Shown here: piece by piece, positions 18,792 to 52,821 of the stretch
How the letters are laid out: each line of letters starts with the position of its first letter
How positions within the stretch are numbered: position 1 is the stretch's first letter
Sequence record: NC_027378.1
From: Escherichia phage Seurat
Length of the DNA stretch: 56,776 nucleotides
Strand: one strand, 5' to 3'
Made by a program: the position numbers and the translations under genes
Notes under the pieces: generated by a model
Told to the model about the DNA's origin: nothing
Seen by the model: the letters and a program-made list of their open reading frames with translations, nothing else
Database searches by the model: none

Positions 18792-18809
18792 ATAAATGTG
18801 GGAGATATT

Positions 18810-20618
18810 ATGGCAACTCGTTTACGTGGTACTTTAGTTGATGGTTTGAACAAGCCTATTATCAACGCTACAGTTGCGCTTTTAGCTAAAGGAAACAGTC
18901 TTACCGTATTATCCGGCAGCGAAGCTATCTTTAAAACAAGTGCAACCGGAACTTATGATATTACAGTCCAGACAGGTTATTACAAGGTTATTATCGGTCC
19001 ACAGGGCGTAGAGCCATATAAAGCTGGTGAAATTGCTATTTACGCGGATAGTAAAGAAGGTACGCTGAATAACTATTTAACTACATGGGCACCGGAAGAA
19101 TTAACTCCGGAAGTTATTGCTCAGGTAAAAGATTTGGTTGCACAAGCAGAGACGGCTAAGAATGCTTCAGCTTCGTCTGCTACTAAATCCGAGCAAGAAC
19201 GCGTTAAAGCAGAAGCTGCTGCTAGAAAGGCAGAAGACACTGCTAATGGTATGAAGGCGTCTATTGGTCTTAGCAATGTTCCAAGACATGTAGCAGATAT
19301 TAGTGGAAACCCTTCTGAGTTCTTAGGGTTTATACGCATATTAAGGACAACTACTGTCGGTTATCCTTCAATTGCTTCTGGTGAAACAGTATTAGCTGGT
19401 TTTGTGTCACCGATGGATGGAACTCCAGGATATACTGGTGTATTTGTTGGAGATGTGACTGGGACTTTATATACTTACCGTTGGACTTCAGTTACTGGCG
19501 CTATATGGTGGAAACATGTAAAATCAGAAACAATAGACAGATATACACAATTATCCGATTCCACTACTATTTATAATGCGTCAAAGAGCGCTACCCTTGT
19601 CATAAAAGATACTAAAACTTGGGGAGCTTGGGACAATCAAAGCTCCAAATACATACCTCTGGCAATAGCACAGGGTGGCACTGGAGGGGTTACTGACGCG
19701 GACGCTCGTACAAACTTAAAGCTTGGCGCTAACGATACCCCGCAATTCAGAAACCTTAATCTTGTTACCGTAGCGGACACGGCGCAAGCCCCTTCCGGTA
19801 TTGTAAGCGGTTATTTAAATAATAGCTCTGGAGTTCAAAGATGCCGCTACCGCATATATTCTGAAATACGCGGTGACAATAAAGCGTGGTTAACCTTACA
19901 CCTTCAATCAGACACAGCAACAAATAAATATGCTGGTCTAAGCGTTGATGGTAATTTTCAAATCAATGGAAGTTTTATCGGTAACGCTTTAAGTCTTAGT
20001 GATGTCCCTACTTCTAAAGTAAATCTTCAAATTAATAGATTTGTTCAGAACACTGGTGAAACTGATGTGGTTAACCATGCAGGGACAGCTCAAATTTTTA
20101 TCACTGATAATAAAAATTGGGGAGCTTACGATAAAGAATCAAAGCGCCATATTCCTTTGCCCATTTCACAAGGAGGTACTGGAGCGGTTACTATTGCTGA
20201 TGCTAAAACCAATCTTCAAATTCCATCTGTAGGTGGGGGTGATTGGTTAACTTATAACGCCCCTCCTGGCGTGGAAGCTGGAAAGTATTATCCCGTTATT
20301 ATTGATATGGCGTATAGTTCTTTATATGCTTCCGGCGCTTTTATAGATATAAAAACAAAATCCGCCTCTGGCGATGATCCAATGAACTGCTGCACTTTTA
20401 ACGGTTTTATCCGATGTGGTGGTTGGAGCGATCGTAAAGACTTCGCAGGGGATTTTATTAGTAAGTTTCTTGGTATGCAACCAGAGCAGCCTGTAGAAGC
20501 ACGCGAGCATATTAGCCCGTGGCCACCCATGATTGATCAGGAAGTGCTGCAACCAAAGACCGCTCAAACGGTCCCTCAGAAACCGGAGCAGAAGGTGAAA
20601 CCAAATGACGAAGAATGA
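18810..20618 (+). CDS. side tail fibre / receptor-binding protein
   Basis: Track start is GTG at 18798, reset to the ATG at 18810 (RBS GGGAGA); two internal repeats (KTWGAWDNQSSKYIPLAIAQGGTGGVT... and NKNWGAYDKESKRHIPLPISQGGTGAVT...). Confidence 0.7.
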   Translation: MATRLRGTLVDGLNKPIINATVALLAKGNSLTVLSGSEAIFKTSATGTYDITVQTGYYKVIIGPQGVEPYKAGEIAIYADSKEGTLNNYLTTWAPEELTPEVIAQVKDLVAQAETAKNASASSATKSEQERVKAEAAARKAEDTANGMKASIGLSNVPRHVADISGNPSEFLGFIRILRTTTVGYPSIASGETVLAGFVSPMDGTPGYTGVFVGDVTGTLYTYRWTSVTGAIWWKHVKSETIDRYTQLSDSTTIYNASKSATLVIKDTKTWGAWDNQSSKYIPLAIAQGGTGGVTDADARTNLKLGANDTPQFRNLNLVTVADTAQAPSGIVSGYLNNSSGVQRCRYRIYSEIRGDNKAWLTLHLQSDTATNKYAGLSVDGNFQINGSFIGNALSLSDVPTSKVNLQINRFVQNTGETDVVNHAGTAQIFITDNKNWGAYDKESKRHIPLPISQGGTGAVTIADAKTNLQIPSVGGGDWLTYNAPPGVEAGKYYPVIIDMAYSSLYASGAFIDIKTKSASGDDPMNCCTFNGFIRCGGWSDRKDFAGDFISKFLGMQPEQPVEAREHISPWPPMIDQEVLQPKTAQTVPQKPEQKVKPNDEE

Positions 20619-22723: not shown

Positions 22724-24709
22724 TTAGGCGTATCCCATGTCTTCGAGATACTTCTCTGCTTTAGCTATATAAGCATCATAATCTATGTCGTCCGGCACTT
22801 TATCCGGTAGCGTCATGATCGGAACACCTCCCGCGCTACCAGCTACACGGTTGCCCGTGTTAGCATAGATTATTTCAGGTGTTTCTTCATTAGTGCTTAA
22901 GTACCAGCGTACAACCTTACCCAAAAATTCGCCATTCCATACCGCGCCGCCTTTTACCGCACGTAGGATAATGAATTTTCTAATATCGTTGCAATTGCGT
23001 ATAGTACGAGAAACAGGCGTACCGTGGGCCAAACATTCACATACAGCTTCCATAATGATCTCACCAGTACAGTTCTTTTGAAGACCTGTCTTTGCGAACC
23101 ACCCTTTACGTTTAATTTCAACATTTCCTTCCTCGTCAGGTTCTTTTACTGCAACATAGTTATTGACGTTAGCGCTGTACAGCTTGTCATAGTAGTTGGA
23201 CTCCATTTCAAAGCCTGTCACGGATTCCCACCACTTGATCATATTATCAACGAAGTCCTGCATATGGTCCGGATACTTAACCACAATACCATCCGTGTTC
23301 GCTGAAATTACTTTAACACCATTTAACTCAAATGCTTCAATAAGCATCAACAGTGATAGCTGCCCTGTTAATGTAACTTGTATCAATAATTGCGGCGCGT
23401 AAAGGACAGACCACATAGACCCCAGCTTACCAAACGATCCGTTAATAACGATCTTCAGCGTGTTGGCTGTGTTCTTGTCTCCGCTGTGCTTAGCTGCAAT
23501 ACGGCGGTCTACAATACTTTTATAAACACGAAGGAACGCTGGTCCCAACTGTTCTGGATATAAGCCCTGATTAAGAATGATTGAAGGATAATAAGACGTT
23601 ACGTCAATGTCCCGCTTTTTGATACCAGGCTCTTTACCGTGGCCAGCACACTCTTCGGAGCTATGTAAACCACCAATACCCATACGGTAGACACCGTCTG
23701 CAATCTTGATCTCAAGACCTGTTAATGCTGGAGGTAAGCTGACACCACCGTTATCGCTAACAATAAAGCGACAGTCCCGAACAATATCAAGAACACTATT
23801 CATCAAAGGTGTTTGAAAACGAATAAAGTCCGGTATGTTGTATGCATACTTTGTTCCAGGATAAACTTGCGGACGCTGTGGGCGCACGCCCGTTAACGCT
23901 TGGATTTCGTGCTTAATTACGTCTTCTGCAATCTGTGCATCGGAGCGTGAACGTAGATCCACACCGTATTCTTGCGACATAATTTCACGCAAGTGAATAG
24001 GCTCTTGCAATGCAATAAAACATTCTTCTGTTTGTACAAGGTCGTTAATACAGTACCAGCGTACAATTAACATCTGGTCCTGCGTTAACATGGTATTGGG
24101 TTTGAACGGTAAATCCTGCATACGTCGAGTATGTACACGTCCGCCGTATTGTTTCAAACCGCCGGACCCAGGCAGCACTTCCATGATATCAATGTGGTTA
24201 ACGTTCTGCATACGCTTGAGACGGTAACTTTTCAATACATCCGAAGGACGCCAGTCTTCAACGATTATCTTATCGGTCGCGTCTTTAAGCTGCGCATTAG
24301 AACAGCCGTTAAGCGCAAGCGTAGCAATGGGCATATCGTACCCGTTACCGTTAAAGCTTACGATAAGGAAGTTTGTCATTACCCAGTTAAGTAATAAGCA
24401 ATTCAAACTACAACCGTGATACATCTCGAAGTAGACAACTTTCTTAGTTCGCACTCCGCGAAATGCAATTAAAAAATAATTTGGATAACATTCTATATCA
24501 TATACAAGCGGTTCGCGGTTAATCCATGCTTGAATAAGTTCGTCCTGTGTGTACAGGTTGTATTGGAAGTTCCGCGCTTCCTCAAGATTAGGCAAATAAT
24601 CCGGGCGCTCCCAAGTGCGCTCCGGCGGTAAACGTTTAACCTTTTCTTTTTTTGCTTTTGGCTCAGGCGGTAAGTCCTGCCAAAAGAAACCAATAGCATC
24701 TGTCCGCAT
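22724..24709 (-). CDS. family B DNA polymerase with 3'-5' exonuclease domain
   Basis: Exo motifs YDIECYPNYF, FNGNGYDMP, WYCINDL; polymerase motifs DVTSYYPSII, KIVINGSFGKLG, SANTDGIV; track start is TTG at 24763, reset to the ATG at 24709. Confidence 0.8.
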   Translation of the reverse strand: MRTDAIGFFWQDLPPEPKAKKEKVKRLPPERTWERPDYLPNLEEARNFQYNLYTQDELIQAWINREPLVYDIECYPNYFLIAFRGVRTKKVVYFEMYHGCSLNCLLLNWVMTNFLIVSFNGNGYDMPIATLALNGCSNAQLKDATDKIIVEDWRPSDVLKSYRLKRMQNVNHIDIMEVLPGSGGLKQYGGRVHTRRMQDLPFKPNTMLTQDQMLIVRWYCINDLVQTEECFIALQEPIHLREIMSQEYGVDLRSRSDAQIAEDVIKHEIQALTGVRPQRPQVYPGTKYAYNIPDFIRFQTPLMNSVLDIVRDCRFIVSDNGGVSLPPALTGLEIKIADGVYRMGIGGLHSSEECAGHGKEPGIKKRDIDVTSYYPSIILNQGLYPEQLGPAFLRVYKSIVDRRIAAKHSGDKNTANTLKIVINGSFGKLGSMWSVLYAPQLLIQVTLTGQLSLLMLIEAFELNGVKVISANTDGIVVKYPDHMQDFVDNMIKWWESVTGFEMESNYYDKLYSANVNNYVAVKEPDEEGNVEIKRKGWFAKTGLQKNCTGEIIMEAVCECLAHGTPVSRTIRNCNDIRKFIILRAVKGGAVWNGEFLGKVVRWYLSTNEETPEIIYANTGNRVAGSAGGVPIMTLPDKVPDDIDYDAYIAKAEKYLEDMGYA

Positions 24710-25449
24710 TAGACACGTTCTCCAATTAATACACCGCGAAGATTTTCCCCAAAGAATGCGCAAGGTTGCGGATATAAACTAAAGTCCGCAGTCTTAACCA
24801 CATTTTCGAGTAATAACAGGATGTCGATATTGTAAACTCCCGTTATTGATCTGTCCTGCAATACGAAGCTTGCACCTTCTGCATCATCATAATGAGTACG
24901 CGCTAGACCGTTTTCAATATATACGCGAGGACGATCTTCCGCAAAAGGTTTGATTTTATGCAAGCCCTCAAAAAGACCTGGATCAACAGGATGTGCATTG
25001 CATTGAACATTTAAAATACGACGTATATCAGGCCACTCCGCATCAATAAGCTGTGTTCGCAACCAGCGACCTTCCGGATAATGAAACGTCACATTGTTCT
25101 TGCTGACCTGAATATGTGTCGGGTTAGCTTTAATGCGCAGTATTTCTTTAATAGCAACAGACGGTATTATGCAGTCAATAGGGAATTGATTACCGAACCA
25201 ATATTCCGCAATGGTGACGTTATTTGTAGCAAACAGGCTACCGTTATTGATCAGAATACCGCAAGCCCACGGGCGGGATGCATCTGAGCCTACGAACGGA
25301 GCAACGGACTTCACACCGTGTACGAAGCGAGCACCGTCTATTTCGTATAAATTGCCTTCAGGGAATACGTGAGGTGTTTCCTTGTCAATACAGCGTATAG
25401 CAACACGAAACGGTCCGGACTTGATATTAAGTTTACCGTTAGCCATCAT
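24709..25449 (-). CDS. hypothetical protein between DpdA and the DNA polymerase
   Basis: About 247 aa; start set at ATGATG preceded by AAGGAAAA; stop overlaps the polymerase ATG (TAATG). Confidence 0.45.
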   Translation of the reverse strand: MMANGKLNIKSGPFRVAIRCIDKETPHVFPEGNLYEIDGARFVHGVKSVAPFVGSDASRPWACGILINNGSLFATNNVTIAEYWFGNQFPIDCIIPSVAIKEILRIKANPTHIQVSKNNVTFHYPEGRWLRTQLIDAEWPDIRRILNVQCNAHPVDPGLFEGLHKIKPFAEDRPRVYIENGLARTHYDDAEGASFVLQDRSITGVYNIDILLLLENVVKTADFSLYPQPCAFFGENLRGVLIGERV

Positions 25450-25609
25450 TGTTTTGTTTTCCTTGTGCATTAAACCATGTACCTGACGGATCCTGCCATT
25501 GCTTAGGTGTCTTGTGGAGAAATACTACTCTGTTTTCACCGTAATAATTAATTCTTACGCCTGTGTGAGTATATTTACGTTTACCTTTTGGTCTTCTTAA
25601 GTTAGCCAT
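25439..25609 (-). CDS. small basic protein (56 aa), not in the ORF track
   Basis: ATG overlaps the DpdA stop (TGATG); MANLRRPKGKRKYTHTG...; no internal stops. Confidence 0.3.
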   Translation of the reverse strand: MANLRRPKGKRKYTHTGVRINYYGENRVVFLHKTPKQWQDPSGTWFNAQGKQNNDG

Positions 25610-26529
25610 CAGAACAACTCCATTACACGATCACGGAATGTGCCGTCATGGGTGGCGTTAATGTTTGCAGCAATTACACCATACGCCCATAAGTTGAAGG
25701 CAGCACGTGATTCATAGATTGTTGATAAACGTTCGTAAGTGAAACCGTTTTGCTCAAGGTATTTAAGGACAGCGTCTTGTTCAATTTCAGTTAATGTTGA
25801 AACATGCTTACCAAAATGATGGCGGTCCGGTGACTTATCTGAAACGCGCATTGGTCCCCACGGAGGGGTAACCACACTTCCAAACGCTGCCGCTTGTATC
25901 CAGGAGGATGAGTCGCAGCTATACCACGGGTAACGTTCCATAATGGTTGTGGACGTAATACCAAACGCATGAAGTTTAATCTTAGCACGTCCGCTACCGT
26001 CGCAAATGTATTTGTCCCACATGCGGTCAAGCCAAGTCTTAAGCGTGTCCGTGGAACGCCCTACCATGCCCCCGATGGTGATATATTCGTAGTTCTTCAT
26101 GTAGTATTCAAGATAGCGGAAGTCCTCCCCAAAGTGAAAGCAAGGTAACGGTTTAGCACCGCGTGCTTCCATTTCAAGCTGGTTACGGTAGGTTTGTAGC
26201 GGATCACCGATACCATCGAGCACCGATGCCATCACCGCACCATCTTCTACGCGAAGGATGTCTTTGTTACGCTTAATGTATTCGCAGTATTCAACAATAT
26301 CAATGTGAGCACCCAAAGAGTGCGCGGAGAATGCACCGGAGTCGAGAAACACTTTAGCCCCGTCCGCACGCATCTGATCAACATACTTTTGACGTCCAAC
26401 GTAGTGGTATGATTCCAAAATATGGGGCAGATTGCGCGTGATATTTTTCTCATGCTCCGACAGCTTTTCATAACGCTGCTGCCCGGGCATATATCCGTTT
26501 GTGTAAACTGCTGCCATAAAAACGTTCAT
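25609..26529 (-). CDS. dpdA: DpdA-like DNA-guanine transglycosylase (TGT family)
   Basis: FLDSGAFS motif matching the catalytic DSGGFQ region of tRNA-guanine transglycosylases; sits in the preQ0 gene cluster. Confidence 0.7.
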   Translation of the reverse strand: MNVFMAAVYTNGYMPGQQRYEKLSEHEKNITRNLPHILESYHYVGRQKYVDQMRADGAKVFLDSGAFSAHSLGAHIDIVEYCEYIKRNKDILRVEDGAVMASVLDGIGDPLQTYRNQLEMEARGAKPLPCFHFGEDFRYLEYYMKNYEYITIGGMVGRSTDTLKTWLDRMWDKYICDGSGRAKIKLHAFGITSTTIMERYPWYSCDSSSWIQAAAFGSVVTPPWGPMRVSDKSPDRHHFGKHVSTLTEIEQDAVLKYLEQNGFTYERLSTIYESRAAFNLWAYGVIAANINATHDGTFRDRVMELF

Positions 26530-26732
26530 TTTTGGAATGGTCCTCCAAACTGATCAATTAGTTCTAAGGTACGCCATGCATTATTAAATGCTTCGTCCGC
26601 TTGATGTTTAGCGTCAATAAGCTGCTGCTTTAAGACATTTGTAGGAGCATCATTCTGTATTGCAGAGCAAGCATCCGCAGTACCTGCTTTAAGCTTGTAG
26701 AATGCAGCTTCTAAAATTAATTGTCTTGACAT
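26526..26732 (-). CDS. hypothetical protein
   Basis: Start reset to MSRQLILEAAF... with RBS GGGGGA. Confidence 0.35.
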   Translation of the reverse strand: MSRQLILEAAFYKLKAGTADACSAIQNDAPTNVLKQQLIDAKHQADEAFNNAWRTLELIDQFGGPFQK

Positions 26733-26803
26733 ATTTCCCCCAATGACTAAAAAGCCCATACCAGTATTATGACCGATATGGGCTTGATCTGTAAAGCTAT
26801 CTA

Positions 26804-27412
26804 TTATTTACAAGCTTCAAGGAACTCCCGGCGCCATTCTTTACCAATATCGCTACCATGCTCCAGTTCTGTAGCGCCCCGGAACGCTTTGGTAATAGTA
26901 GAGCTTCCGCATACCTGCTTGACGCCACGACTTTCCATGCACATATGCTTGGCGTCAATATAAACACATACCGCTTTCGGATTCAGGTGTTCCTGGATAG
27001 CGTCAGCAATCTGGTTAGTTAGTCTTTCCTGAACTTGTAAGCGGCGTGCAAAAGCGTCAACCACACGAGACAGTTTGCTAAGCCCCACAATGCGACCGTT
27101 CGGGACATACCCCACAACAGCACGACCAATAATGGGAGCCATATGGTGCTCGCAATGACTGTAAACAGGAATATCCCGTACAATAACCATTTCATTAGTA
27201 TTTTCCGCCCCATCCTCAAAGGTCTTAAACAGCCCAGCAATATCTACATCGTAACCGCTAAACCATGTAGCATAGGCTTTAGCGACACGATCTGGAGTCT
27301 CTGCTAATCCTGGACGTAACTTAATGCAATCTTCAATCTGAGTTAGTAAAGTATGCACCGCGCGAGCAATACGGAATTGAGTACCTTCGTTATCAATAGT
27401 AAATTTTGGCAT
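26804..27412 (-). CDS. folE: GTP cyclohydrolase I
   Basis: 202 aa with the FolE signature YSHCEHHMAPIIG. Confidence 0.9.
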   Translation of the reverse strand: MPKFTIDNEGTQFRIARAVHTLLTQIEDCIKLRPGLAETPDRVAKAYATWFSGYDVDIAGLFKTFEDGAENTNEMVIVRDIPVYSHCEHHMAPIIGRAVVGYVPNGRIVGLSKLSRVVDAFARRLQVQERLTNQIADAIQEHLNPKAVCVYIDAKHMCMESRGVKQVCGSSTITKAFRGATELEHGSDIGKEWRREFLEACK

Positions 27413-27448
27413 GGTTTGCAGTTTCCTTGTTTGTTAATGTGGTCATAC

Positions 27449-27982
27449 TTACAGACTATAGTTTACGTGACATTTCGAAGTTTCTTCGATGGTGCATTCT
27501 ACAAGTTGAACACCATGTTCGTCAAGCAGTTGCGACCCAATTACTTCAACCATGTACGCAGCCAGGTTTTCTGCGGTCGGGTTGAAAGGCAGCGCTACCA
27601 GCGAGTCAAAGAAATGGTATCCGTCCTCTTGCTCTACCACGTCATACCCTATAGCAGCGTCGTGACGTAAAAGAGCATCGAGCCCTTTAATGAGAGGATC
27701 ATTTTCCCAATGCAGGAATTTATGATCCCAGTTATCTTCCAGCCATTGGCAGAGCGTAGTTTTGACCACACTAAAATCAATAACGCGCCCAACATCGTCC
27801 AGTTTACCTTCAACGGAGAAACCTTTCGCACCCGGGATGTAGTTTTCGCTTTCTACGCGCTTCGGCGCAACCTTAAAATGAAACTTATAGTTATGACCGT
27901 GAAGGTGGCGACACTTGCTTTCATGTCCTACAACACGATGTCCAGCACAAATTTCATGTGAACGAATTACTGTATAGCTCAT
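27449..27982 (-). CDS. queD: 6-carboxy-5,6,7,8-tetrahydropterin synthase
   Basis: CAGHRVVGHESKCRHLHGHNYKF zinc/catalytic motif. Confidence 0.85.
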   Translation of the reverse strand: MSYTVIRSHEICAGHRVVGHESKCRHLHGHNYKFHFKVAPKRVESENYIPGAKGFSVEGKLDDVGRVIDFSVVKTTLCQWLEDNWDHKFLHWENDPLIKGLDALLRHDAAIGYDVVEQEDGYHFFDSLVALPFNPTAENLAAYMVEVIGSQLLDEHGVQLVECTIEETSKCHVNYSL

Positions 27983-28524
27983 TTTAATACCTCTTTAGAT
28001 TGTTCGATTTCTAACGCACGCTGTGCAGACGCAATAATGTCTTTCAAATCTTCTACCAGACCTTTATGACCGCGTTCGCCCGGCTGTAATGCCTTTTTAA
28101 TTAAATGCTGTAAAGCTGGGTTAGTTGTTTTCCAAGCTTCCAAGACATCATACACGTCCACGATGCATTTTACAACATTGCCGTTTTGATCTTTACCATA
28201 AATAACTTTCTGATATTTATTCATGGGAATTTTAGACGGTTCGTATTTCGTAAAAATTGCGGTTTTATCAGTTCTCCAATAGGGTAGATTTGCTTCAATA
28301 GATTGTTTGACGTAATCCTCCGCAACGATATACCGCCAGGCTACTACATCCGACATCTTGAGTGGTAATGGTTTGGGATTGTCTGTATACCAATCCCAAC
28401 CAGTTCTATAATTCTTAACAATATTACCGCTAGCTAATTGAACTTCAAACTGCTCGTTTTGTAGAAAGATAGGCATCCCTTTGCCATCATGCTTGTGCCA
28501 AATTTTATTCAAATTATCTTTCAT
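27979..28524 (-). CDS. hypothetical protein embedded in the 7-deazaguanine cluster
   Basis: About 181 aa from MKDNLNKIWHKH...; no recognisable motif. Confidence 0.45.
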   Translation of the reverse strand: MKDNLNKIWHKHDGKGMPIFLQNEQFEVQLASGNIVKNYRTGWDWYTDNPKPLPLKMSDVVAWRYIVAEDYVKQSIEANLPYWRTDKTAIFTKYEPSKIPMNKYQKVIYGKDQNGNVVKCIVDVYDVLEAWKTTNPALQHLIKKALQPGERGHKGLVEDLKDIIASAQRALEIEQSKEVLK

Positions 28525-28526
28525 TT

Positions 28527-29006
28527 TTACGCTCTCGCTGTACGTGAATGAACTTCGTAAACAACCCAAAGGATAGCGGATGCTGTGAACTTACTTAAGC
28601 TCATTGCTACCATTGATCCCGGATTAACAATACCTATAATACTTAAGAACACAATGGAGTCAATTGGTACAGCTACCAAAGAGCTGATAAATACGCGTTG
28701 ATGGAAAGGCTTCTTCGTAATCGTGTATACCGCATAGTCCGCGAACTCACTGAGGGCAAAAGACGCAACTGATGCAACTACAACAGCAGGATCCCCAAAT
28801 ACCCAGCTAAGGATGCAACCGACAATCATTGCAGGGATAACACCTTTGCCTGCGTTACGCTGTGCATAGTCGCGCAACACAAAGATAATACCTACAAAGA
28901 AAGCCATCATCGGGACTACGCCAAGCGGCGTGTTAAGCATTGGAAGGTAGGAAAAGCCCAGGTTTACGAATGTAATTGCAGCCAAATAAGCGACGATAAA
29001 TTTCAT
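28527..29006 (-). CDS. integral membrane protein, candidate queuosine-precursor transporter (YhhQ/DUF165-like)
   Basis: About 159 aa, several TM helices; loose resemblance to YhhQ (SEFADYAVY, FGD); RBS TGGAGAA. Confidence 0.45.
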   Translation of the reverse strand: MKFIVAYLAAITFVNLGFSYLPMLNTPLGVVPMMAFFVGIIFVLRDYAQRNAGKGVIPAMIVGCILSWVFGDPAVVVASVASFALSEFADYAVYTITKKPFHQRVFISSLVAVPIDSIVFLSIIGIVNPGSMVAMSLSKFTASAILWVVYEVHSRTARA

Positions 29007-29126
29007 ACTTTTGTTCTCCAGTTTTAACAGCGGTATTCGCTGGTTGTTGGGTTTAAAAGCTTTAGTAGTATAGTTGGGTTCCCGCACCCTAAACAATGCG
29101 CTAGCGGTGCGGTTTTCGCGGTAAGA

Positions 29127-29834
29127 TCAAGCTTTGCTAATAAATTCGCTGTACCCTTTAGCACGAAGTTTGCACGCAGGACATTCACCGCAGCCATATC
29201 CCCAGTCATGCAGAGTGCGACGGACGCCGTTATAACACGTATGGGACTGCTCAATTACTGTGGTTAAGAAGCCAACCTTATCCGCCAGCTCAAACGTTTC
29301 TGCTTTATTTAAACGCATAAGCGGGGTAACGAAATGAATATCTGTTTCATATCCAACGTTTAACGTAGCTTCAAGCAAATCTACAAACTGCTGACGGCAA
29401 TCCGGATAACCGCTATAGTCCGTTTCGCAAACGCCCGTAACCACATATCGGGCGCCAACTTTCTGCGCGTAGGCGTGCGCGGTAGTCAGAAAAAGAGCAT
29501 TACGGTTTGGCACAAAGCTAGCCGGAAGGTTGTTGTGCTGTTCGTGATGTTCGTTAACATCACCTTCGTTCCCGATTAAAGCGCTATTGCCAATCTGTTT
29601 CAAAGCAGGTAATTCAAAGACAACAAATTGGACATCGTGCTCTTTACAAATCTGATTAGCACAAGCCAGCTCAATGTTATGACGTTGACCGTATGCAAAA
29701 CCAATAGCGTAAACCTTATCATAGTTATTAAGTGCAAGACCTAAACAGGTCACGCTGTCCTGGCCGCCAGACAGGACGACAACGGCGGAGTTATGATTTT
29801 TTACAGGGAATACCAGTTTATCTAATTTATTCAT
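29127..29834 (-). CDS. queC: 7-cyano-7-deazaguanine synthase
   Basis: PP-loop VVLSGGQDSVTC; C-terminal Cys cluster CYNG...GYGCGECPACKLR; stand-alone, no amidotransferase domain. Confidence 0.85.
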   Translation of the reverse strand: MNKLDKLVFPVKNHNSAVVVLSGGQDSVTCLGLALNNYDKVYAIGFAYGQRHNIELACANQICKEHDVQFVVFELPALKQIGNSALIGNEGDVNEHHEQHNNLPASFVPNRNALFLTTAHAYAQKVGARYVVTGVCETDYSGYPDCRQQFVDLLEATLNVGYETDIHFVTPLMRLNKAETFELADKVGFLTTVIEQSHTCYNGVRRTLHDWGYGCGECPACKLRAKGYSEFISKA

Positions 29835-29835
29835 C

Positions 29836-30024
29836 TTAGAACCCTTTAAGGCTAATATTAAGATTAACGACCACTTGTTCAACTACATCATCAGATGTCA
29901 TCTGACGCTTATGAATTTCAAGCTCCGAATGTATGTTCTTGGATGCAGCACGACAGATAGCGTCATTCAGCTCGTCTTGTAAACGTTGCATCTTCTGCAT
30001 AAGAATCACAGTCTCTTCATTCAT
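29836..30024 (-). CDS. hypothetical small protein
   Basis: 62 aa, helical, charged. Confidence 0.4.
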   Translation of the reverse strand: MNEETVILMQKMQRLQDELNDAICRAASKNIHSELEIHKRQMTSDDVVEQVVVNLNISLKGF

Positions 30025-30229
30025 CTTCTACACCTTTAATATCACAAGGATTGATTGTTACATTTGACATCACAATTGGATGATTGCGTGCTCCGATTGT
30101 ACTAACGTGATTAATATCTAATTCTACATGCACGCCCTGCATAGTAGCGTGAGCAATTGAAGAATTAAGTTTTTCTACCAGCTCAGTGATCATTTCCTGA
30201 TGCTGTTTCGCTTCTTCCAAAGTGATCAT
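30017..30229 (-). CDS. hypothetical small protein
   Basis: 70 aa. Confidence 0.4.
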   Translation of the reverse strand: MITLEEAKQHQEMITELVEKLNSSIAHATMQGVHVELDINHVSTIGARNHPIVMSNVTINPCDIKGVEDE

Positions 30230-30484
30230 TTAAACCTCCGTTAATGTTTGAGTCCAGTCTAAGCCTTCAAGGTCTACATCAGCTATTTCATCGTACTCGT
30301 AAGCTCCCGGATCTGCTGGCAGCCATCTATCAAATCGATGGCTGAGTTCTGGAGGAATTGCTTCATACCCCCAAACCTTCCCATCCTTGTCGGCTGCCAG
30401 ATAATCAACTCGACTTGGAACGGTTAAAGCGACACCACAAAAATTAACATCTTTAGTATGCACAACCTGACTTAATACACGCAT
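30230..30484 (-). CDS. small acidic protein, member of a three-copy paralogous family
   Basis: VPSRVDYLAADKDGKVWGYEAIPP...GLDWTQTLTEV shares motifs with the 51099 and 51682 proteins. Confidence 0.5.
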   Translation of the reverse strand: MRVLSQVVHTKDVNFCGVALTVPSRVDYLAADKDGKVWGYEAIPPELSHRFDRWLPADPGAYEYDEIADVDLEGLDWTQTLTEV

Positions 30485-31191
30485 TATTCCACCCCGATAT
30501 ATTTGTGGACCTGAAGCTGCAACGTGTACCCGTGTTTCATACAGCTTTGGACAACCGCTTGGATATTACTGTGGTTAAGGTCTTCATCCTGCTCGTCCAT
30601 TGGCTGTAAATATATCTTACCCTTGAAACCCTTCGGAGGTCTAGCGATAAATGGCGTAGCTTGATGATCTAATGCCTGAAGCGGCAAACCATCTTCCACG
30701 TTTACACAGCACGCTTTAAGTACATATTTAAATGCATTAGCGCGGCGCAGCACAGAAGGATGAATCTTTGAGGTCTTGGGACTACATACAATTACAGGTA
30801 ACTGGGAAAAGTTCTTAGGTAAAGGCATAGACCCATTAGTTTCAATTTGCACCAAATAGCCGCGCGATAACAGTTGTTCAATAAACGGGTTAATTTGCTG
30901 ACGGAACGGTTCACCCCCAGTGATAACCACAAGTGAGGTGCTATTACCTGATTCCAGCTTACGGCTTTCGATTAAACGCATAATATCAACAATATGATAA
31001 AGACTACGACCAACAGTATAATCGGTATCACAGCCAGGGCATTGCAGATTACACCCAGCAAGACGCACAAATACAGCAGGTTGGCCGCAGAATGGACCTT
31101 CACCCTGAATGGTAGAGAATACCGAATGCACGTCTAAATACATATCGTTTTCTTTAGAACGGGACTCGGGAGCTTGTTGATTAATATTCAT
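30484..31191 (-). CDS. queE: 7-carboxy-7-deazaguanine synthase (radical SAM)
   Basis: CNLQCPGCDTDY cluster-binding motif near the N-terminus; 235 aa. Confidence 0.85.
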   Translation of the reverse strand: MNINQQAPESRSKENDMYLDVHSVFSTIQGEGPFCGQPAVFVRLAGCNLQCPGCDTDYTVGRSLYHIVDIMRLIESRKLESGNSTSLVVITGGEPFRQQINPFIEQLLSRGYLVQIETNGSMPLPKNFSQLPVIVCSPKTSKIHPSVLRRANAFKYVLKACCVNVEDGLPLQALDHQATPFIARPPKGFKGKIYLQPMDEQDEDLNHSNIQAVVQSCMKHGYTLQLQVHKYIGVE

Positions 31192-31202
31192 CTTAAATCC
31201 TC

Positions 31203-31235
31203 TAGTGAAAAAGAAAGCGCCTCATTGGGCGCTTT
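31203..31235 (-). terminator. intrinsic terminator
   Basis: AAAGCGCC-caatga-GGCGCTTT followed by CTTTTTC on the minus strand. Confidence 0.55.
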
Positions 31236-31260
31236 CATTATAACGTGATATGTTTTGATA

Positions 31261-32073
31261 TTACAAGCCGTTCAGGGCTTCCGGTACTGGCATAGGTACG
31301 CGACCAGTTACACCATTAAACTTCTTCCAACGTGCATACTGAGTTTTAACGGTATCTTCGTTCAGACCGTGGCGACCTGCCAGATTCAGAACATAAGAGA
31401 TCGGAGCAGGCTGACCCAGCGTAGCGCTAATCTGATCCATCAGAGCCCAGGCACGACCGCAGGAAGTTTCAGGTTGCGGACGACGAACACCATTCTGTTC
31501 GGGCATACGGTTCGCTTCTTTCGCTTTTTCACGTTCAGCTTTTTCGCGGGCTTTTTCAGCAGCCTTTTCAGCCTGTTTAGCAGCGCGGATCTTGTCTTTG
31601 AAGCCTTTGATAGACGAATCCAGTTCGTCAACCATGCTCTGAGCAGCAGTTACTGCACCGGACAGATCTTCACCTTTGGATTTTTTAACAACTGCTTTCA
31701 GATCTTTCAGAGCATTCTTTAAATGCTTCAGCTGTTCGGAACCCTTAGATTCTGCTTCCGTAATCTGTTCAACAGTGCTTTCATCGGTAATACCGGATAA
31801 AGCAAGCTTCACGGTTTCAACTGCCTGGGAAAGAGTGGTAAATTTATTTTCCGCTTCAGTACGAATTTCAGCTTGTTTCTTTTCAGCGGCAGCTTTTTTC
31901 TCTGCTTCTTTTTTCTCTTTTGCTACGCGTGCAGCTTCAGCAGCAGCGGCTTTTTTAGCTTCTGCGTCGTTAGCAGTAGCTTCTTTCTTTGCAGGCTTAG
32001 CAGATTTTGCAGCGGCAGCAGCGGCTGCGGCAGCAGCGGCTTTCTTATCTTCAATATTACTCATTTTCTTCAC
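31261..32073 (-). CDS. Lys/Ala-rich histone H1-like protein with a C-terminal globular, possibly DNA-binding, domain
   Basis: N-terminal KKAAAAAAAAAAAKSAKPAKKE... low-complexity tract; C-terminal WALMDQISATLGQPAPISYVLNLAGRHGL. Confidence 0.5.
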   Translation of the reverse strand: MKKMSNIEDKKAAAAAAAAAAAKSAKPAKKEATANDAEAKKAAAAEAARVAKEKKEAEKKAAAEKKQAEIRTEAENKFTTLSQAVETVKLALSGITDESTVEQITEAESKGSEQLKHLKNALKDLKAVVKKSKGEDLSGAVTAAQSMVDELDSSIKGFKDKIRAAKQAEKAAEKAREKAEREKAKEANRMPEQNGVRRPQPETSCGRAWALMDQISATLGQPAPISYVLNLAGRHGLNEDTVKTQYARWKKFNGVTGRVPMPVPEALNGL

Positions 32074-47551: not shown

Positions 47552-47553
47552 AT

Positions 47554-47730
47554 TTATTTCCTTACGAACACAGAGCCGACGAATAATGTTGATTGAGTAG
47601 CAGCTTGCTCGATTAATTCGCCAACAAGCTGGGACTGCGTCAGAGGCTTAAGGCCTACTTTGGCGCGAGCTTCATTTACACGACGTTGAAGGTCTTTTAG
47701 GTATTGAGTTGCGAAACTATCTAATTGCAT
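47554..47730 (-). CDS. small protein (58 aa), not in the ORF track
   Basis: MQLDSFATQYLKDLQRRVNEARAKVGL...; stop abuts the next start. Confidence 0.4.
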   Translation of the reverse strand: MQLDSFATQYLKDLQRRVNEARAKVGLKPLTQSQLVGELIEQAATQSTLFVGSVFVRK

Positions 47731-47785
47731 CTTCTTATCCTTAGGGCTCCCGCAGAAGCCCGTCAGTGAACAGTGTGGTTATAGA

Positions 47786-47899
47786 TTATGCCAGTGAGTA
47801 CCTTGCTTTTAATTTTTGGTTTGCTGCGATAATTTTACATACAGGTATAACAACCAGAAGATCATTATAGTCCAGCCAGAATTGAATGAGCGCCTGCAT
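47786..47899 (-). CDS. micro-protein (37 aa), not in the ORF track
   Basis: ATG preceded by GGAGGG; start overlaps the stop of the 47904 gene. Confidence 0.3.
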   Translation of the reverse strand: MQALIQFWLDYNDLLVVIPVCKIIAANQKLKARYSLA

Positions 47900-47903
47900 T
47901 TAA

Positions 47904-48518
47904 TTAACCCTCCAAGCCGTTATATTTGCGCCAGGCGTAGAACTGAATGGCTACCGTCGTCCCGTTGTAAGAAGGCATTGCAGCTTTCATTTCTTTCAGC
48001 TCCGGCGTGCGGCCCAGTTCCTTCAGAAGCTTGTCGCCCATTGCCCACACTTCGGCAGTTTTTCCTTTCAGGGGCTTGCGAGCGCCATTTTTGAAATCAC
48101 AGCGAGCAGCTTTTACATCCTGTTTTGGCGCGGCAGCTTTTGGCTCTTCAATTTTGATTTCAGAAACCTGCGTGGCAGCTTTTGCGTGTTTCATATCTTT
48201 CTCTTCCTCCTGCTCCAGAGCTTCGAGGCAGCTTTTGACGATTTCCGGATTTACCATCGGGCGCAGTACCGAGACGCTGGCAGCTGGCGCGGCGGTCGGT
48301 GCCGGGACTTTCTGCTCCGGCTGTTGCGCTTTTTCGTGATCGCGAAGCACCTGAAGCACTTCCTTTTCGACAATGTAAAAACCGATGTCGTCCTGATGAA
48401 TTAACTGTTCGTGTGCGTCGCGTGCAACCTGACCCCAACGGTTCTTCAGGGCGCGGCGTGCATTCGTTTTCATGGTGTAACGCATTTTGTCCTGTTCGCG
48501 GTGAGTTACTTTAGACAT
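47904..48518 (-). CDS. hypothetical early protein
   Basis: 204 aa. Confidence 0.45.
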   Translation of the reverse strand: MSKVTHREQDKMRYTMKTNARRALKNRWGQVARDAHEQLIHQDDIGFYIVEKEVLQVLRDHEKAQQPEQKVPAPTAAPAASVSVLRPMVNPEIVKSCLEALEQEEEKDMKHAKAATQVSEIKIEEPKAAAPKQDVKAARCDFKNGARKPLKGKTAEVWAMGDKLLKELGRTPELKEMKAAMPSYNGTTVAIQFYAWRKYNGLEG

Positions 48519-48604
48519 GGTATATTCCTTCTGTTAGATTGTTTAGTAGTCTTGCTAAGTTGTACTTATTATTGCCCACTAAGTTGAAGTAGGCAAGATA
48601 TAAA

Positions 48605-49108
48605 TCAGCTATTTCTGATATTCTTTAGAGCTTGTGTACAAAAGAAAACATCCAGCAAAACAAGTTTTCCGTCTTTTACCGCCACATTGCGGGGACTGAT
48701 TTCAAACCACATTTGCGGACCAATATTAGCGCAAGCATCCAAAGCTTCCAGGAGCACATCTTTAATGTCTTGAGCCAGGTCGCTATTACTGAAAGCATCA
48801 TATAGATAGCTATAGTTGTCATATGTGTTACGCGGCATCTCTAACCCTGCGCACAAGCTGCGGAGTTGTTTATAGAGTGCGTATTGCTCAGGTTGTAAAG
48901 AGCTTTTTAAGCTGCGGACACGAGGGTAATAATCCATTTCGTAGACACCTGTGTCTATCATTGTGACATGGGGAAATAATTCATGCTCAGGAAACCATCC
49001 CCACGCCATGCATTCTTTAATAGGGTCGCAAGATTTTAGAAGTACGCGACCTGAGTCTAGAAGGTATGCCTTGGTGAAAGCGCCCTTGCCAATTAGTTTA
49101 GTAGCCAT
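48605..49108 (-). CDS. small protein kinase-like protein (atypical)
   Basis: Start reset to MATKL... with RBS AAGGAG; Gly-rich loop IGKGAFTKAY, VLLK, EISPRNV catalytic-loop-like, LLDVF DFG-like. Confidence 0.4.
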   Translation of the reverse strand: MATKLIGKGAFTKAYLLDSGRVLLKSCDPIKECMAWGWFPEHELFPHVTMIDTGVYEMDYYPRVRSLKSSLQPEQYALYKQLRSLCAGLEMPRNTYDNYSYLYDAFSNSDLAQDIKDVLLEALDACANIGPQMWFEISPRNVAVKDGKLVLLDVFFCTQALKNIRNS

Positions 49109-49441
49109 GTTGTGCTCCTTAATGTGGTTAAGTAGTATTGCTTTGTTGAAGTAATAATAGCCTTGCATCGTGATATTGAATAGGCCAAAAGTGCTATTTT
49201 AGATCACTATTACATCTACAGCTTTGCAGTAACGCTACGCTAAAAATGCAAAGTCTTACGTTTGCTAAACATGTAGATTTTGTGCACATCACTCTTAGTA
49301 CGTATAACGTCTATTATGTTAAATAGCTAACCTATTGATTTATGGTATGCCCTACGTGCGGTTGGATGAATGTCGTGTCTAAGTCTTTGTTTTAAAAGGT
49401 GCTAAAAATTTGATGGTGGAAAACTGTAAAAGTACATGTCA

Positions 49442-49471
49442 TTAACTGACATAAAATGTTGTCAGTATAAA
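49442..49471 (+). promoter_or_regulatory. candidate rightward promoter with a palindromic operator in the spacer
   Basis: TTAACT-N18-TATAAA; spacer holds CTGACAT-aaa-ATGTTGTCAG. Confidence 0.3.
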
Positions 49472-49556
49472 TGCCACGTTTGGCCTAGACATAGATCAAG
49501 TCATGTCGTACTATATAGTCAAAGGAAAGATAAAGCCGAAAGGCGGAGGAAATAAA

Positions 49557-49706
49557 ATGAGAAAGTTTAAAGTCATGTGCTATGGTAACTACATTGGAGA
49601 CGTTAAAGCGCCGAACCGTGCGGATGCAGAAGGTTTCGTCCGCGCAGAGATGCAACTTGGAATTGCTGATTTTGCAGCTATTATTGAACTGGTAGAGGTA
49701 TTTTAA
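49557..49706 (+). CDS. hypothetical small protein
   Basis: Start reset to the ATG at 49557 with RBS GGAGG. Confidence 0.4.
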   Translation: MRKFKVMCYGNYIGDVKAPNRADAEGFVRAEMQLGIADFAAIIELVEVF

Positions 49707-49707
49707 T

Positions 49708-49851
49708 ATGACACGCAAATACAGGCTTACACGTGCACAGCACGCGTTATTATTGCAGGTTATGCGCATGGAGTACGAAGAGACTACATGGGCGCAAGCT
49801 ATGCAGACAGGGCGCGAGTTCTACGCGCAACTAATAGCACAAAATGCCTAG
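49708..49851 (+). CDS. small protein (47 aa), not in the ORF track
   Basis: TAATATG arrangement with the previous gene; RBS GAGG. Confidence 0.35.
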   Translation: MTRKYRLTRAQHALLLQVMRMEYEETTWAQAMQTGREFYAQLIAQNA

Positions 49852-49908
49852 ACAACATGATCGGTCTGGTGGATACTACACACATCAACCAAATAGTGGA
49901 GGTACAAA

Positions 49909-50094
49909 ATGTTAATCTTAATCATGATGGTCGTTGCGGTAGTGGGCCCACTGGTGGCACTGATTGTAACCGAAGTATGTGATGCTAAATGGGATCGCAA
50001 ATACAACGAAGTAATGGAACAGCGGTATGCAGAGCGCCGCGTAAGGAAATGGGAACAGCGCTATAACGCACACAGCGACACGCTAGCGAGCTAA
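49909..50094 (+). CDS. small membrane protein
   Basis: 61 aa; N-terminal TM helix; RBS GGAGG. Confidence 0.45.
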   Translation: MLILIMMVVAVVGPLVALIVTEVCDAKWDRKYNEVMEQRYAERRVRKWEQRYNAHSDTLAS

Positions 50095-50135
50095 TGTACA
50101 TAGGTAATGGTAATGCATTAGCTTGGGCGAAACAG

Positions 50136-50175
50136 GCGCACAGCGTCGCGCACAGCTCGCACAGCGCACACAGAC
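50136..50175. repeat. short tandem GC-rich repeat (GCGCACAGC units)
   Basis: GCGCACAGCGTC / GCGCACAGCTC / GCACAGCGCACACAG in a roughly 400-bp non-coding stretch. Confidence 0.55.
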
Positions 50176-50492
50176 CCACGCAGGCCCAGCCGCGCAACCC
50201 GACCCATCCTTTTCCAGGTACTTGGAGCGCTGGGGCGTGCCCTGTCCATCCTGATAGTAAGTCCACGCCTAAATCTCACCAATCACTTTACTATCCACCT
50301 ACATCCATGACCCCACCTACCTTCTTTTTGAATATATTGCGCTCATCCTTTCTAAATATATGGATTTTGGTAGTAAATTCTGAGTCGTCAACGTATAATT
50401 CGTCTTGTAGCTGCTCCATAGCTACCATCTTTAAGCGGATGCAACCAATTTCTATCAATTCTTACCAGTTTTAGAGCATCAAGGAGGTATTT

Positions 50493-50750
50493 ATGTGCGA
50501 CTCCAGTGCAAGCGCTACACCCAGCACCTCCAGCAATGTGGTTACAGAGGTAAATGCAATGCGATTAGGTCCATATCGCGGCTATTATGGTCGGGCAGCA
50601 TGGAATGACGCTACTCAACGTTTTGAAGGCTGGATTATCTGCCCGGAACGTGTTAAATTTCACTCCGTAAAAGAGAAAAATATCGTTCTTAATTTTCAAA
50701 AATGTGTCACTAAATATGTAGAGGAGCAAGAAGAATGTCTTATCAATTAG
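50493..50750 (+). CDS. hypothetical protein
   Basis: 85 aa; RBS AAGGAGG. Confidence 0.5.
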   Translation: MCDSSASATPSTSSNVVTEVNAMRLGPYRGYYGRAAWNDATQRFEGWIICPERVKFHSVKEKNIVLNFQKCVTKYVEEQEECLIN

Positions 50751-51097
50751 CTTTAGAAGCTGCCGGATGCGAAGTATTAGATTATGTTGAATACGGCTGC
50801 TATCAAGGTGAGTGGCTTGCATTGATCCGCAAGGACGGCGCTTTGGGAGTTTGCGAAGGGTCTTATGGTTCCTGCTCAGTTTGCGATGCATTTGAGGCTG
50901 AATTTGGTTATTTAGATGATGAGGAAGCGGATTACCAGAAACGTCTTGCAGATTTTGGAGAAGGTTACTTACCCGCAAATACTTTTGAAGAGATGATTGC
51001 TAAGCTTCAGAAGGATGTTGAAAACTATTCATACGATGACGATTATAAGTCAATGTTGAATACAGTTATTAACTGGCAAAAGCAATACGGGGTTTAA
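50735..51097 (+). CDS. highly acidic protein
   Basis: 120 aa rich in D/E/Y; RBS GAGGAG. Confidence 0.5.
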   Translation: MSYQLALEAAGCEVLDYVEYGCYQGEWLALIRKDGALGVCEGSYGSCSVCDAFEAEFGYLDDEEADYQKRLADFGEGYLPANTFEEMIAKLQKDVENYSYDDDYKSMLNTVINWQKQYGV

Positions 51098-51098
51098 G

Positions 51099-51338
51099 AT
51101 GCGTTTAAAGTATAAGCAAAAGATTGTAGAATACTTCGGGATGCAACTTGTTGTCCCTGAATGGGTTAAATGGCTTGCTGTCGATGGTGATGGGGAGCTG
51201 TACGGTTACGAATGCGAGCCTGATAACTTAGTTGATGAACCGTGGGACGAATGGTACACAGAAGAAGGTAAATGTTACCGCATTACAGAAGTAGTTCTTG
51301 AAGAACATTGGTCTGAAACCTTAGTGGAGCTTTTCTAA
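51099..51338 (+). CDS. small acidic protein, paralogous family member
   Basis: VPEWVKWLAVDGDGELYGYECEPD...EEHWSETLVEL. Confidence 0.5.
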   Translation: MRLKYKQKIVEYFGMQLVVPEWVKWLAVDGDGELYGYECEPDNLVDEPWDEWYTEEGKCYRITEVVLEEHWSETLVELF

Positions 51339-51339
51339 A

Positions 51340-51630
51340 ATGCACATAGAAGAACTTGTTGAAGGCAAAGAGTATCGTTTACTGACCGATATTGGTGGTG
51401 TTGGGTATACTCCGGATGATGCGGCTTGTTTTAACGTCCTTCCGCAAGGTGCTATCGTGACAGTTAACAAGGTCGTTACCGATTTATACAGTGTTCATGA
51501 CGGCAGATGGCCATATGCAGTTATTGTCACCTTCGGTAAAGATGGTTATGTGGACCTTGATGGCGAAGACGATACTTACGAAGTTGCGTATACAGGTCTG
51601 GTAAGTCCCAATTTCCTGGAAGAAGTATAA
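51340..51630 (+). CDS. hypothetical acidic protein
   Basis: 96 aa. Confidence 0.45.
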   Translation: MHIEELVEGKEYRLLTDIGGVGYTPDDAACFNVLPQGAIVTVNKVVTDLYSVHDGRWPYAVIVTFGKDGYVDLDGEDDTYEVAYTGLVSPNFLEEV

Positions 51631-51681
51631 TTATCAATCTATAATGGGCTCTACGGAGCCCTTAATTATCTGGAGGTTGTT

Positions 51682-51978
51682 ATGCTGTATTTAGGAATGG
51701 ACGAAACTGGACACGCGATTCCTTCCGTTAACAAGGAGACGCAAGTATTTACCGACTATTACGGGTCTGCTGTCCCTGTTGAGCCCTGGGCTAACTTTAT
51801 CGCTGTAGACGCAGACGGTAAAGTACATTGTTATGACGCCAAACCTTCTTGCTATGAATCTGGTAAGCAATGGATGCTTGGCGTATACGGTTTGCATGTT
51901 CGCTACTGCGGCGAAGTTGACATTGAAGGTGTGGACTGGCGCGATACGTTGAAGGAGATTAAAGATGTCCGCGGCTGA
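51682..51978 (+). CDS. small acidic protein, paralogous family member
   Basis: VEPWANFIAVDADGKVHCYDAKPS...GVDWRDTLKEI; RBS GGAGG. Confidence 0.5.
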   Translation: MLYLGMDETGHAIPSVNKETQVFTDYYGSAVPVEPWANFIAVDADGKVHCYDAKPSCYESGKQWMLGVYGLHVRYCGEVDIEGVDWRDTLKEIKDVRG

Positions 51979-52051
51979 AGTTACGACATTTATAATAGCT
52001 TTTGCTGTTGCTTTATTCCTTATAGCTAAGTTAGATTTAATGATGGGATAG
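51965..52051 (+). CDS. hydrophobic micro-protein (28 aa), not in the ORF track
   Basis: MSAAEVTTFIIAFAVALFLIAKLDLMMG; RBS AGGAG; overlaps the stop of the previous gene. Confidence 0.4.
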   Translation: MSAAEVTTFIIAFAVALFLIAKLDLMMG

Positions 52052-52054
52052 TTT

Positions 52055-52279
52055 ATGCGCTTACTCATGGTGTTAGGCGTTATACTTGCCGCTTTCGTTG
52101 TATTTGCAATTGTAGACTCTAAAGAAATGGAGCGGCAAAACTGCCAACGTACTGGTAACAGCCGGGATGATATTATTTGGCAATATATTTACGATGCAAA
52201 AGGTAATGTTATGTCAATGTATCCTCAGGTTATTACTGAGTATGAATATAAATGCAATGACCGTAACAGGTGGAGATAA
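52055..52279 (+). CDS. small membrane protein
   Basis: 74 aa; N-terminal TM helix. Confidence 0.45.
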   Translation: MRLLMVLGVILAAFVVFAIVDSKEMERQNCQRTGNSRDDIIWQYIYDAKGNVMSMYPQVITEYEYKCNDRNRWR

Positions 52280-52281
52280 TA

Positions 52282-52821
52282 ATGAGCTGTCAAAAATGTA
52301 ACGGAACGGGAATGGTTGATAGTGGTGGAGTTCAACCGTGGGGTGATCCTATTCTGGTGGAGTGCGATTGTTTATATCGTGAGCGCGATGCTTGGGAGCT
52401 GGATCAAGCTGGAGGTTATTACTCCCGCCATGTTATGGCAATGACATCCGAAGGTTTGCACAGCAAAGGTGATATTGCTGCGGAGCTGGGCTATCGTGAC
52501 ATGCGCATTGACCAGATAGAAGCTGAATGGCGTGCTCAGGAAGAACGTGCAGAAAATGCTGAGACGGATCTTGTCGACATGCGTGCTGCTGAGCACGCTC
52601 TATCCGATTCTTATATTCGTTTGCGTCAAATTGTTGGTGCAATGAATCCGCCTGGTGTGAGCAGCGAAGAGGTGTGGGCGCATACCGAGAAGAAGGCTCA
52701 AGAGTTGCGTGATCGCTGCGAAGCTCTGGAAGCTGTAGCAAAGGACTTCCTGCGTCGTAACGCTAACGGTCCTTTGTTCTATCGTGATTTGTATAACCGT
52801 TTTAAGGAGATTGTGAAATGA
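52282..52821 (+). CDS. zinc-finger protein (DnaJ-like CxxCxGxG motif)
   Basis: Track start is GTG at 52270; reset to the ATG at 52282; CQKCNGTG...ECDC. Confidence 0.5.
   Translation: MSCQKCNGTGMVDSGGVQPWGDPILVECDCLYRERDAWELDQAGGYYSRHVMAMTSEGLHSKGDIAAELGYRDMRIDQIEAEWRAQEERAENAETDLVDMRAAEHALSDSYIRLRQIVGAMNPPGVSSEEVWAHTEKKAQELRDRCEALEAVAKDFLRRNANGPLFYRDLYNRFKEIVK

Follow-up and report, generated by a model that had tools for sequence, protein, structure and literature searches.

The genome of Escherichia phage Seurat (sequence record NC_027378.1), after which the genus Seuratvirus in the subfamily Queuovirinae is named, raises the question of why a phage should carry genes for making 7-cyano-7-deazaguanine (preQ0) beside that of a base-exchanging transglycosylase, DpdA, and which base ends up in its DNA. 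The window analysed is the complete genome, 56,776 bp with 44.6% GC, and the element in question is a block of genes at 25609-31191, in which an initial annotation of the sequence saw a DNA-modification cluster more likely to yield preQ0 in DNA (dPreQ0) than archaeosine in DNA (dG+). With high confidence, the block can be read as a 7-deazaguanine DNA-modification module of the DpdA1 type and the dPreQ0 subtype, belonging to the Seuratvirus/CAjan group. The cluster is not new, since it lies in a published genome and has itself been published: Hutinet et al. 2019 list it among the phages with DpdA and the preQ0 pathway and without amidotransferase, their supplementary data giving accessions for DpdA, FolE, QueD, QueE and QueC of Seurat (NC_027378), and a paper of 2021 shows it in a comparative drawing.

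The block consists of eleven tightly packed or overlapping open reading frames (ORFs) on the minus strand, all intact in translation, which are given here in the order of transcription together with the signals ahead of them:

31213-31266, minus strand: intergenic signals upstream of QueE, a promoter-like element and a hairpin (consensus scan, RNA folding)
30484-31191, minus strand: QueE, 7-carboxy-7-deazaguanine synthase, first gene (PHROG 2076, CNLQCPGC, identity to CAjan)
30230-30484, minus strand: orf84, small protein (PHROG 1972, unknown function)
30017-30229, minus strand: orf70, small protein (PHROG 26258)
29836-30024, minus strand: orf62, small protein (PHROG 24420)
29127-29834, minus strand: QueC, stand-alone preQ0 synthase, 235 residues (PF06508, TIGR00364)
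28527-29006, minus strand: YhhQ-like multi-pass membrane protein, putative preQ0 transporter, 159 residues (sub-cut-off Vut_1 and TIGR00697 matches, hydrophobic segments)
27979-28524, minus strand: 181-residue ORF, CPT_Seurat37 (exact match to AIW03900.1)
27449-27982, minus strand: QueD, 6-carboxytetrahydropterin synthase (PF01242, TIGR03367, Cx3HGH motif)
26804-27412, minus strand: FolE, GTP cyclohydrolase I (PF01227, TIGR00063)
26526-26732, minus strand: 68-residue small protein, longest ORF to 26759 (PHROG 20065)
25609-26529, minus strand: DpdA (DpdA1 type), predicted DNA guanine transglycosylase inserting preQ0, last gene (PHROG 887, fold)

The six genes first recognised (DpdA, FolE, QueD, YhhQ-like, QueC and QueE) are therefore all intact on one strand, and the motifs quoted for them (FLDSGAF, SHCEHH, the Cys/His pattern of QueD, SGGQDS with a Cys cluster, CNLQCPGC) were each found in the translations; the embedded ORFs of unknown function are also present, but they number five and not one or two. 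Shine-Dalgarno-like sites are present for all eleven ORFs. The starts of QueC (29834), YhhQ (29006), the 181-residue ORF (28524) and the 68-residue ORF (26732) lie inside the longest ORFs, at inner ATG codons with Shine-Dalgarno-like sequences, and the same starts are found in the annotations of relatives. Moreover, GenBank proteins of Escherichia phage Seurat match QueC (AIW03902.1), DpdA and the 181-residue ORF exactly. The block as a whole shows about 92% DNA identity to more than 30 Seuratvirus genomes, a conservation which, judged by sequence comparison, is far beyond chance.

The identities of the genes were established here from motifs and profiles. In the comparison with profile hidden Markov models, FolE, QueC and QueD scored above curated cut-offs and QueE was recognised by PHROG 2076. 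FolE (motif YSHCEHHM) matches PF01227 (E 2e-63) and TIGR00063 (E 1e-57), both above cut-off; QueD (CAGHR...CRHLHGHNY) matches PF01242 (E 7e-22, above cut-off) and TIGR03367 (E 3e-17); and QueC (LSGGQDS and a C-terminal CYNG...CGECPACK) matches PF06508 (E 6e-75) and TIGR00364 (E 2e-72), both above cut-off, the former over residues 33-246 of the 251-residue longest ORF, which is nearly the whole 235-residue protein. QueE carries the radical S-adenosylmethionine motif CNLQCPGC (Cx3Cx2C) and matches PHROG 2076 (E 6e-69), with weak matches to the Radical_SAM and Fer4_12 families of Pfam. A complete preQ0 pathway thus adjoins dpdA. After infection, FolE would convert guanosine triphosphate (GTP) into dihydroneopterin triphosphate, from which QueD would form 6-carboxytetrahydropterin, the radical enzyme QueE 7-carboxy-7-deazaguanine and the stand-alone QueC preQ0. 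DpdA, with the fold of a tRNA-guanine transglycosylase (TGT) and no tRNA-binding domains, would then exchange guanine for preQ0 in double-stranded phage DNA after replication, its expected targets, GA and GGC, comprising about 28% of the G's of the Seurat genome. The dPreQ0 so formed would shield the phage DNA from many type I and type II restriction enzymes, while the five small or unknown ORFs would be expected to have no effect on the base.

What this module is likely to make can be read from CAjan (Hutinet 2019, Kot 2020), a phage of the same genus in which gene order and strand are the same and in which, as in Seurat, there is no amidotransferase. The two genomes share about 96% nucleotide identity across 52.3 of 56.8 kb, circularly permuted with respect to each other, and the proteins are 100% (DpdA and QueE), 97% (YhhQ), 96% (QueC) and 90% (FolE) identical. 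In CAjan DNA, dPreQ0 was the sole 7-deazaguanine found by liquid chromatography-tandem mass spectrometry (LC-MS/MS), at about 32% of G (PMC6884629), with dADG, dG+, dPreQ1 and dQ each at less than 6 per 10^6 nucleotides (PMC6884629; PMC7544227). Deletion of dpdA left no dPreQ0 and DNA that was fully digestible by restriction enzymes (PMC6884629). For full modification folE, queC and dpdA are needed, the loss of folE or queC causing a strong reduction; about 1/12 of the dPreQ0 is retained on deletion of queC, from host preQ0 (PMC7544227). The modification motifs are GA and GGC (PMC7544227), which in Seurat hold 24.3% and 4.0% of the G's, a total of 28.3% as against 28.1% in CAjan. In addition, Seuratvirus and Nonagvirus phages broadly resist type I and type II restriction-modification in vivo. 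Since Seurat and CAjan, whose chemistry is known, have identical DpdA and QueE, homology supports dPreQ0 as the base of Seurat. The chemistry, the motif specificity and the protection are taken here from the CAjan literature, from which we infer that Seurat virion DNA would behave in the same way. Both a preQ0 pathway serving a DNA transglycosylase and the preference for dPreQ0 over dG+, as proposed in the initial annotation, agree with the model published for this group of phages.

As regards the YhhQ-like protein, which shows several hydrophobic segments, yhhQ is dispensable for de novo synthesis, because its deletion in CAjan keeps full modification (PMC7544227). The protein probably salvages external preQ0 and can be dispensed with.

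Several points weigh against dPreQ0 as the product of a CAjan-like module in Seurat. QueE matches five QueE TIGRFAMs (E 1e-20 to 1e-28), all below their cut-offs, and the YhhQ-like protein also remains below cut-offs, with 24.5 vs 27.2 bits for Vut_1 (E 4e-5) and 20.6 vs 50.95 for TIGR00697 (E 3e-4). Strict equivalence of Seurat and CAjan is an assumption, because QueD and the 181-residue ORF are only 78% and 57% identical, respectively, and orf84, which in Seurat lies between QueE and orf70, has no counterpart in CAjan (no CAjan DNA match for 30231-30481). Furthermore, the published modification levels disagree (70.6 vs 44 per 10^3 nucleotides; PMC6884629; PMC7544227), the LC-MS/MS on CAjan targeted known 7-deazaguanines only, and no published measurement on Seurat's own DNA was found. 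A further difference is an extra 107-residue ORF that adjoins QueD in CAjan.

These differences lend themselves to an alternative in which preQ0 is modified further, or another 7-deazaguanine inserted, the agent being either orf84 or the 181-residue protein in its variable N-terminal part. The absence of orf84 from CAjan, the divergence of the 181-residue ORF and the lack of a known function for any of the five embedded ORFs speak for it; nevertheless, such a derivative beyond dPreQ0 seems very unlikely, since the embedded ORFs are small (62-181 residues) and show no catalytic domain signature, and the ORFs scanned yielded no Gat, ArcS or QueF-like sequence. In fact, the Gat half (residues 1-240) of the Gat-QueC fusion of phage 9g has no match in any of the six frames of the genome (tblastn, best E 8.5-10), and only residues 241-457 of that protein align to Seurat QueC, at 28% identity, which bears out the initial description of a QueC without a Gat domain. 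No Gat, ArcS or QueF/QueF-L Pfam domain occurs in the cluster ORFs, DpdL, DpdM and DpdN not having been searched by name, nor in ten ORFs of at least 90 residues from segments without a CAjan match, a scan that left out the tail-fibre ORF over 19142-20426 and ORFs below 90 residues. The only QueF signal consisted of weak matches on FolE, below cut-off and over the same stretch as the FolE match, which were read as a T-fold cross-match; the statement that the cluster holds no ArcS- or QueF-like ORF stands. The absence of an amidotransferase is thus an observation on Seurat itself.

The two proteins that this alternative invokes also speak against it. orf84 has no Pfam or NCBIfam match, and it is present, 99% identical, in WildeMaa (Bas23), a Seuratvirus regarded by its authors as a dPreQ0 phage. 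The 181-residue protein, which forms a one-member cluster named from Seurat alone, has a variable N-terminal part and, at its C-terminus (27979-28220), a strongly conserved domain some 75 residues long, for which there are more than 200 homologues and, across 31 sequences, 28 invariant positions. Neither the protein nor the conserved domain has a Pfam or PDB match. Across diverse phages this domain is joined to many different N-terminal parts; it also occurs in gp07 of 9g and in the early regions of other phages with no que genes nearby. Because it is found in que-less phages, in the dG+ phage 9g and in the dPreQ0 phage CAjan, the domain does not track base identity, and the 181-residue ORF was rejected as a hidden modifying enzyme or determinant of base identity.

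Some further observations were made on the embedded ORFs. The pattern of the C-terminal domain of the 181-residue ORF is NKYQ...VDVYDV...NPALQHLIKKALQPGERGHK...DLKDIIASAQRA, and an identical 181-residue ORF is encoded by a metagenomic relative (Logan contig SRR10098752_555); a weak Glyco_hydro_98C match on this ORF was below cut-off and was treated as spurious. orf70 is 96% identical to its CAjan counterpart and has no Pfam match; the label "radical SAM domain-containing protein" attached to the CAjan homologue and to PHROG 26258 finds no Pfam support. orf62 and orf70 (29836-30229, minus strand) overlap by 8 bp and share 35% identity over 26 residues (E 2e-4), so that they may be tandem paralogues. 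The 68-residue ORF, 97% identical to that of CAjan, has no Pfam or NCBIfam match, and its alignment to PHROG 20065 begins at residue 10.

The second question is whether the transglycosylase acts on DNA at all, or whether the cluster provides queuosine or archaeosine precursors for host tRNA. The latter is suggested by the "queuine tRNA-ribosyltransferase" labels of GenBank and PHROGs, by the 2015 genome announcement of Seurat, which discusses queuosine in tRNA, and by the TGT-like fold of DpdA itself. The protein (motif VFLDSGAFS; PHROG 887, E 8e-96) has, however, no Pfam match at E <= 0.01, the TGT family PF01702 included, and a precomputed Pfam domain was found in none of 120 close homologues. 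With 306 residues as against 373-577 in the listed solved TGTs, it has no additional C-terminal (tRNA-binding) domains and no CxCxxC zinc motif, its cysteines being only C82, C130, C176 and C205. Its match to the NCBIfam model of bacterial DpdA, NF041059, is very weak (E 2e-3, 16.9 vs a cut-off of 200 bits), a PDB sequence search gave no match, and narrow and deep family profiles against the PDB gave 7UI4 as sole match, which was non-significant (E 0.79).

The structure of DpdA was also modelled. A first model, built from a shallow alignment of sequences all at least 68% identical, was discarded in favour of one from a deep alignment because of its poor predicted local distance difference test score (pLDDT 61) and an uninformative fold search. 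An exhaustive search yielded 5,614 representatives of the DpdA family, 92 diverse members of which were aligned, and the model from this alignment reached a pLDDT of 96.9. Among the matches listed by Foldseek against the PDB, all 50 were tRNA-guanine transglycosylases. In structure comparison, the model comes closest to 7UI4, the DNA preQ0 insertase DpdA, with the tRNA TGTs behind it. The nine residues put forward for CAjan DpdA as catalytic, with two aspartates, or as part of the preQ0/guanine pocket (PMC7544227), namely D63, S64, F67, D105, H132, G153, G154, F189 and D206, are all present in Seurat. Eight of them are invariant or nearly so in the family: D206, together with H187, is invariant in the 92 homologues and the other seven are at least 90% conserved, with F67 outside the conserved columns. 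On the modelled structure, DpdA is a transglycosylase with a TGT-like TIM barrel that resembles DNA preQ0 insertases more closely than it does tRNA TGTs, and it does not fall among the tRNA-specific enzymes. The genome, moreover, holds no tRNA genes, and the identical DpdA of CAjan is required for dPreQ0 in DNA. A tRNA role thus appears even less probable than further modification of the base, and to label this protein a "queuine tRNA-ribosyltransferase", as older annotations do, is misleading.

Least credible of all is that the cluster is non-functional and the DNA unmodified, through a regulatory defect or a Seurat-specific 279-bp deletion directly downstream of dpdA, since the eleven ORFs are intact with their Shine-Dalgarno-like sites, DpdA and QueE have active counterparts of identical sequence in CAjan, and the deletion begins past the dpdA stop codon and leaves the cluster untouched.

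The deletion itself lies near 25453 (25439-25470), relative to CAjan 28413-28691, and affects the ORFs at 24709-25470 and 25439-25609, so that a hypothetical protein of 75 residues loses its C-terminus and the sliding clamp (DNA polymerase beta subunit) roughly its first 71 residues, which leaves the clamp at most 253 residues in Seurat; that of CAjan has 317 and that of 9g 330. In the database, 24 relatives span the junction, all with about 280 bp or more in addition, and short AACAA repeats flank it; the deletion could be real or a 454 assembly artefact. In contig SRR10098752_555 (8100-8633), an HNH_3 homing endonuclease gene stands between the 75-residue ORF and a full-length 317-residue clamp, at the deletion site of Seurat (about 25450), and WildeMaa has an additional ORF at the equivalent junction, which looks like a hotspot of insertion and loss.

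At the other end of the cluster, a promoter-like TTGTAA-18-TATAAT was found by consensus scan at 31266-31237 on the minus strand, followed directly by a GC-rich hairpin of 9 bp with a T run (31236-31213), which appears in both the minimum free energy and the centroid folds. The pair lies within the 69-bp gap between an upstream gene of 270 residues and QueE, and could represent a terminator and a promoter that make the modification genes a transcription unit of their own. Rfam, at gathering thresholds over the whole genome, gave no match and no preQ1-type riboswitch; an sraL match within the cluster was at chance level, and the folding of the 120-nucleotide spacer between QueC and YhhQ was not unusual (z -1.3).

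Elsewhere in the genome, no CAjan DNA match was found for 47552-47930, 48537-49116, 49204-49703, 49759-50062, 50738-51338 and 52285-52731. These segments encode ORFs of 93-204 residues with no Pfam domain, and 47552-52731 is a variable early-gene region of the genus Seuratvirus. The tail-fibre gene (18798-20618) also lacks a CAjan DNA match in its C-terminal part (19142-20426), a divergence that fits the exchangeable loci for receptor binding or lateral tail fibres described in these small siphoviruses.

In practical terms, dPreQ0 made by DpdA together with FolE, QueD, QueE and QueC is a signature trait of Seuratvirus phages, and in work with Seurat, be it phage therapy, cloning or sequencing, dPreQ0 should be expected at about 28% of the G's. 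Going by the results on CAjan, such DNA would resist enzymes such as HaeIII and give poorer nanopore base-calling.

Among known systems, that of 9g (Nonagvirus) shares the arrangement queE, queC, queD, folE, dpdA and the adjoining clamp and polymerase genes, its proteins being 69% (DpdA), 81% (FolE), 76% (QueD) and 64% (QueE) identical to those of Seurat; it differs in having the Gat-QueC fusion (471 residues) and no YhhQ, and its product is dG+, not dPreQ0. The DpdA of the Salmonella Montevideo Dpd system (PDB 7UI4, "DNA preQ0 insertase") is only 16% identical to that of Seurat. Bacterial DpdA is reported to insert at less than 0.1% of G and to work in complex with a partner. In the bacterial system the partner is DpdB, and DpdC then turns dPreQ0 into dADG; none of the Dpd-type partner genes is encoded in the Seurat genome. 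Pseudomonas phage iggy, also of the Queuovirinae, shares with Seurat the stand-alone QueC, DpdA and gene order, with dPreQ0 as product, and resistance to EcoRV has been shown for it, its dPreQ0 being at GA sites. The DpdA of iggy is confined to GA, which accounts for about 16.5% of G, whereas the CAjan-type enzyme, identical in Seurat, also targets GGC.

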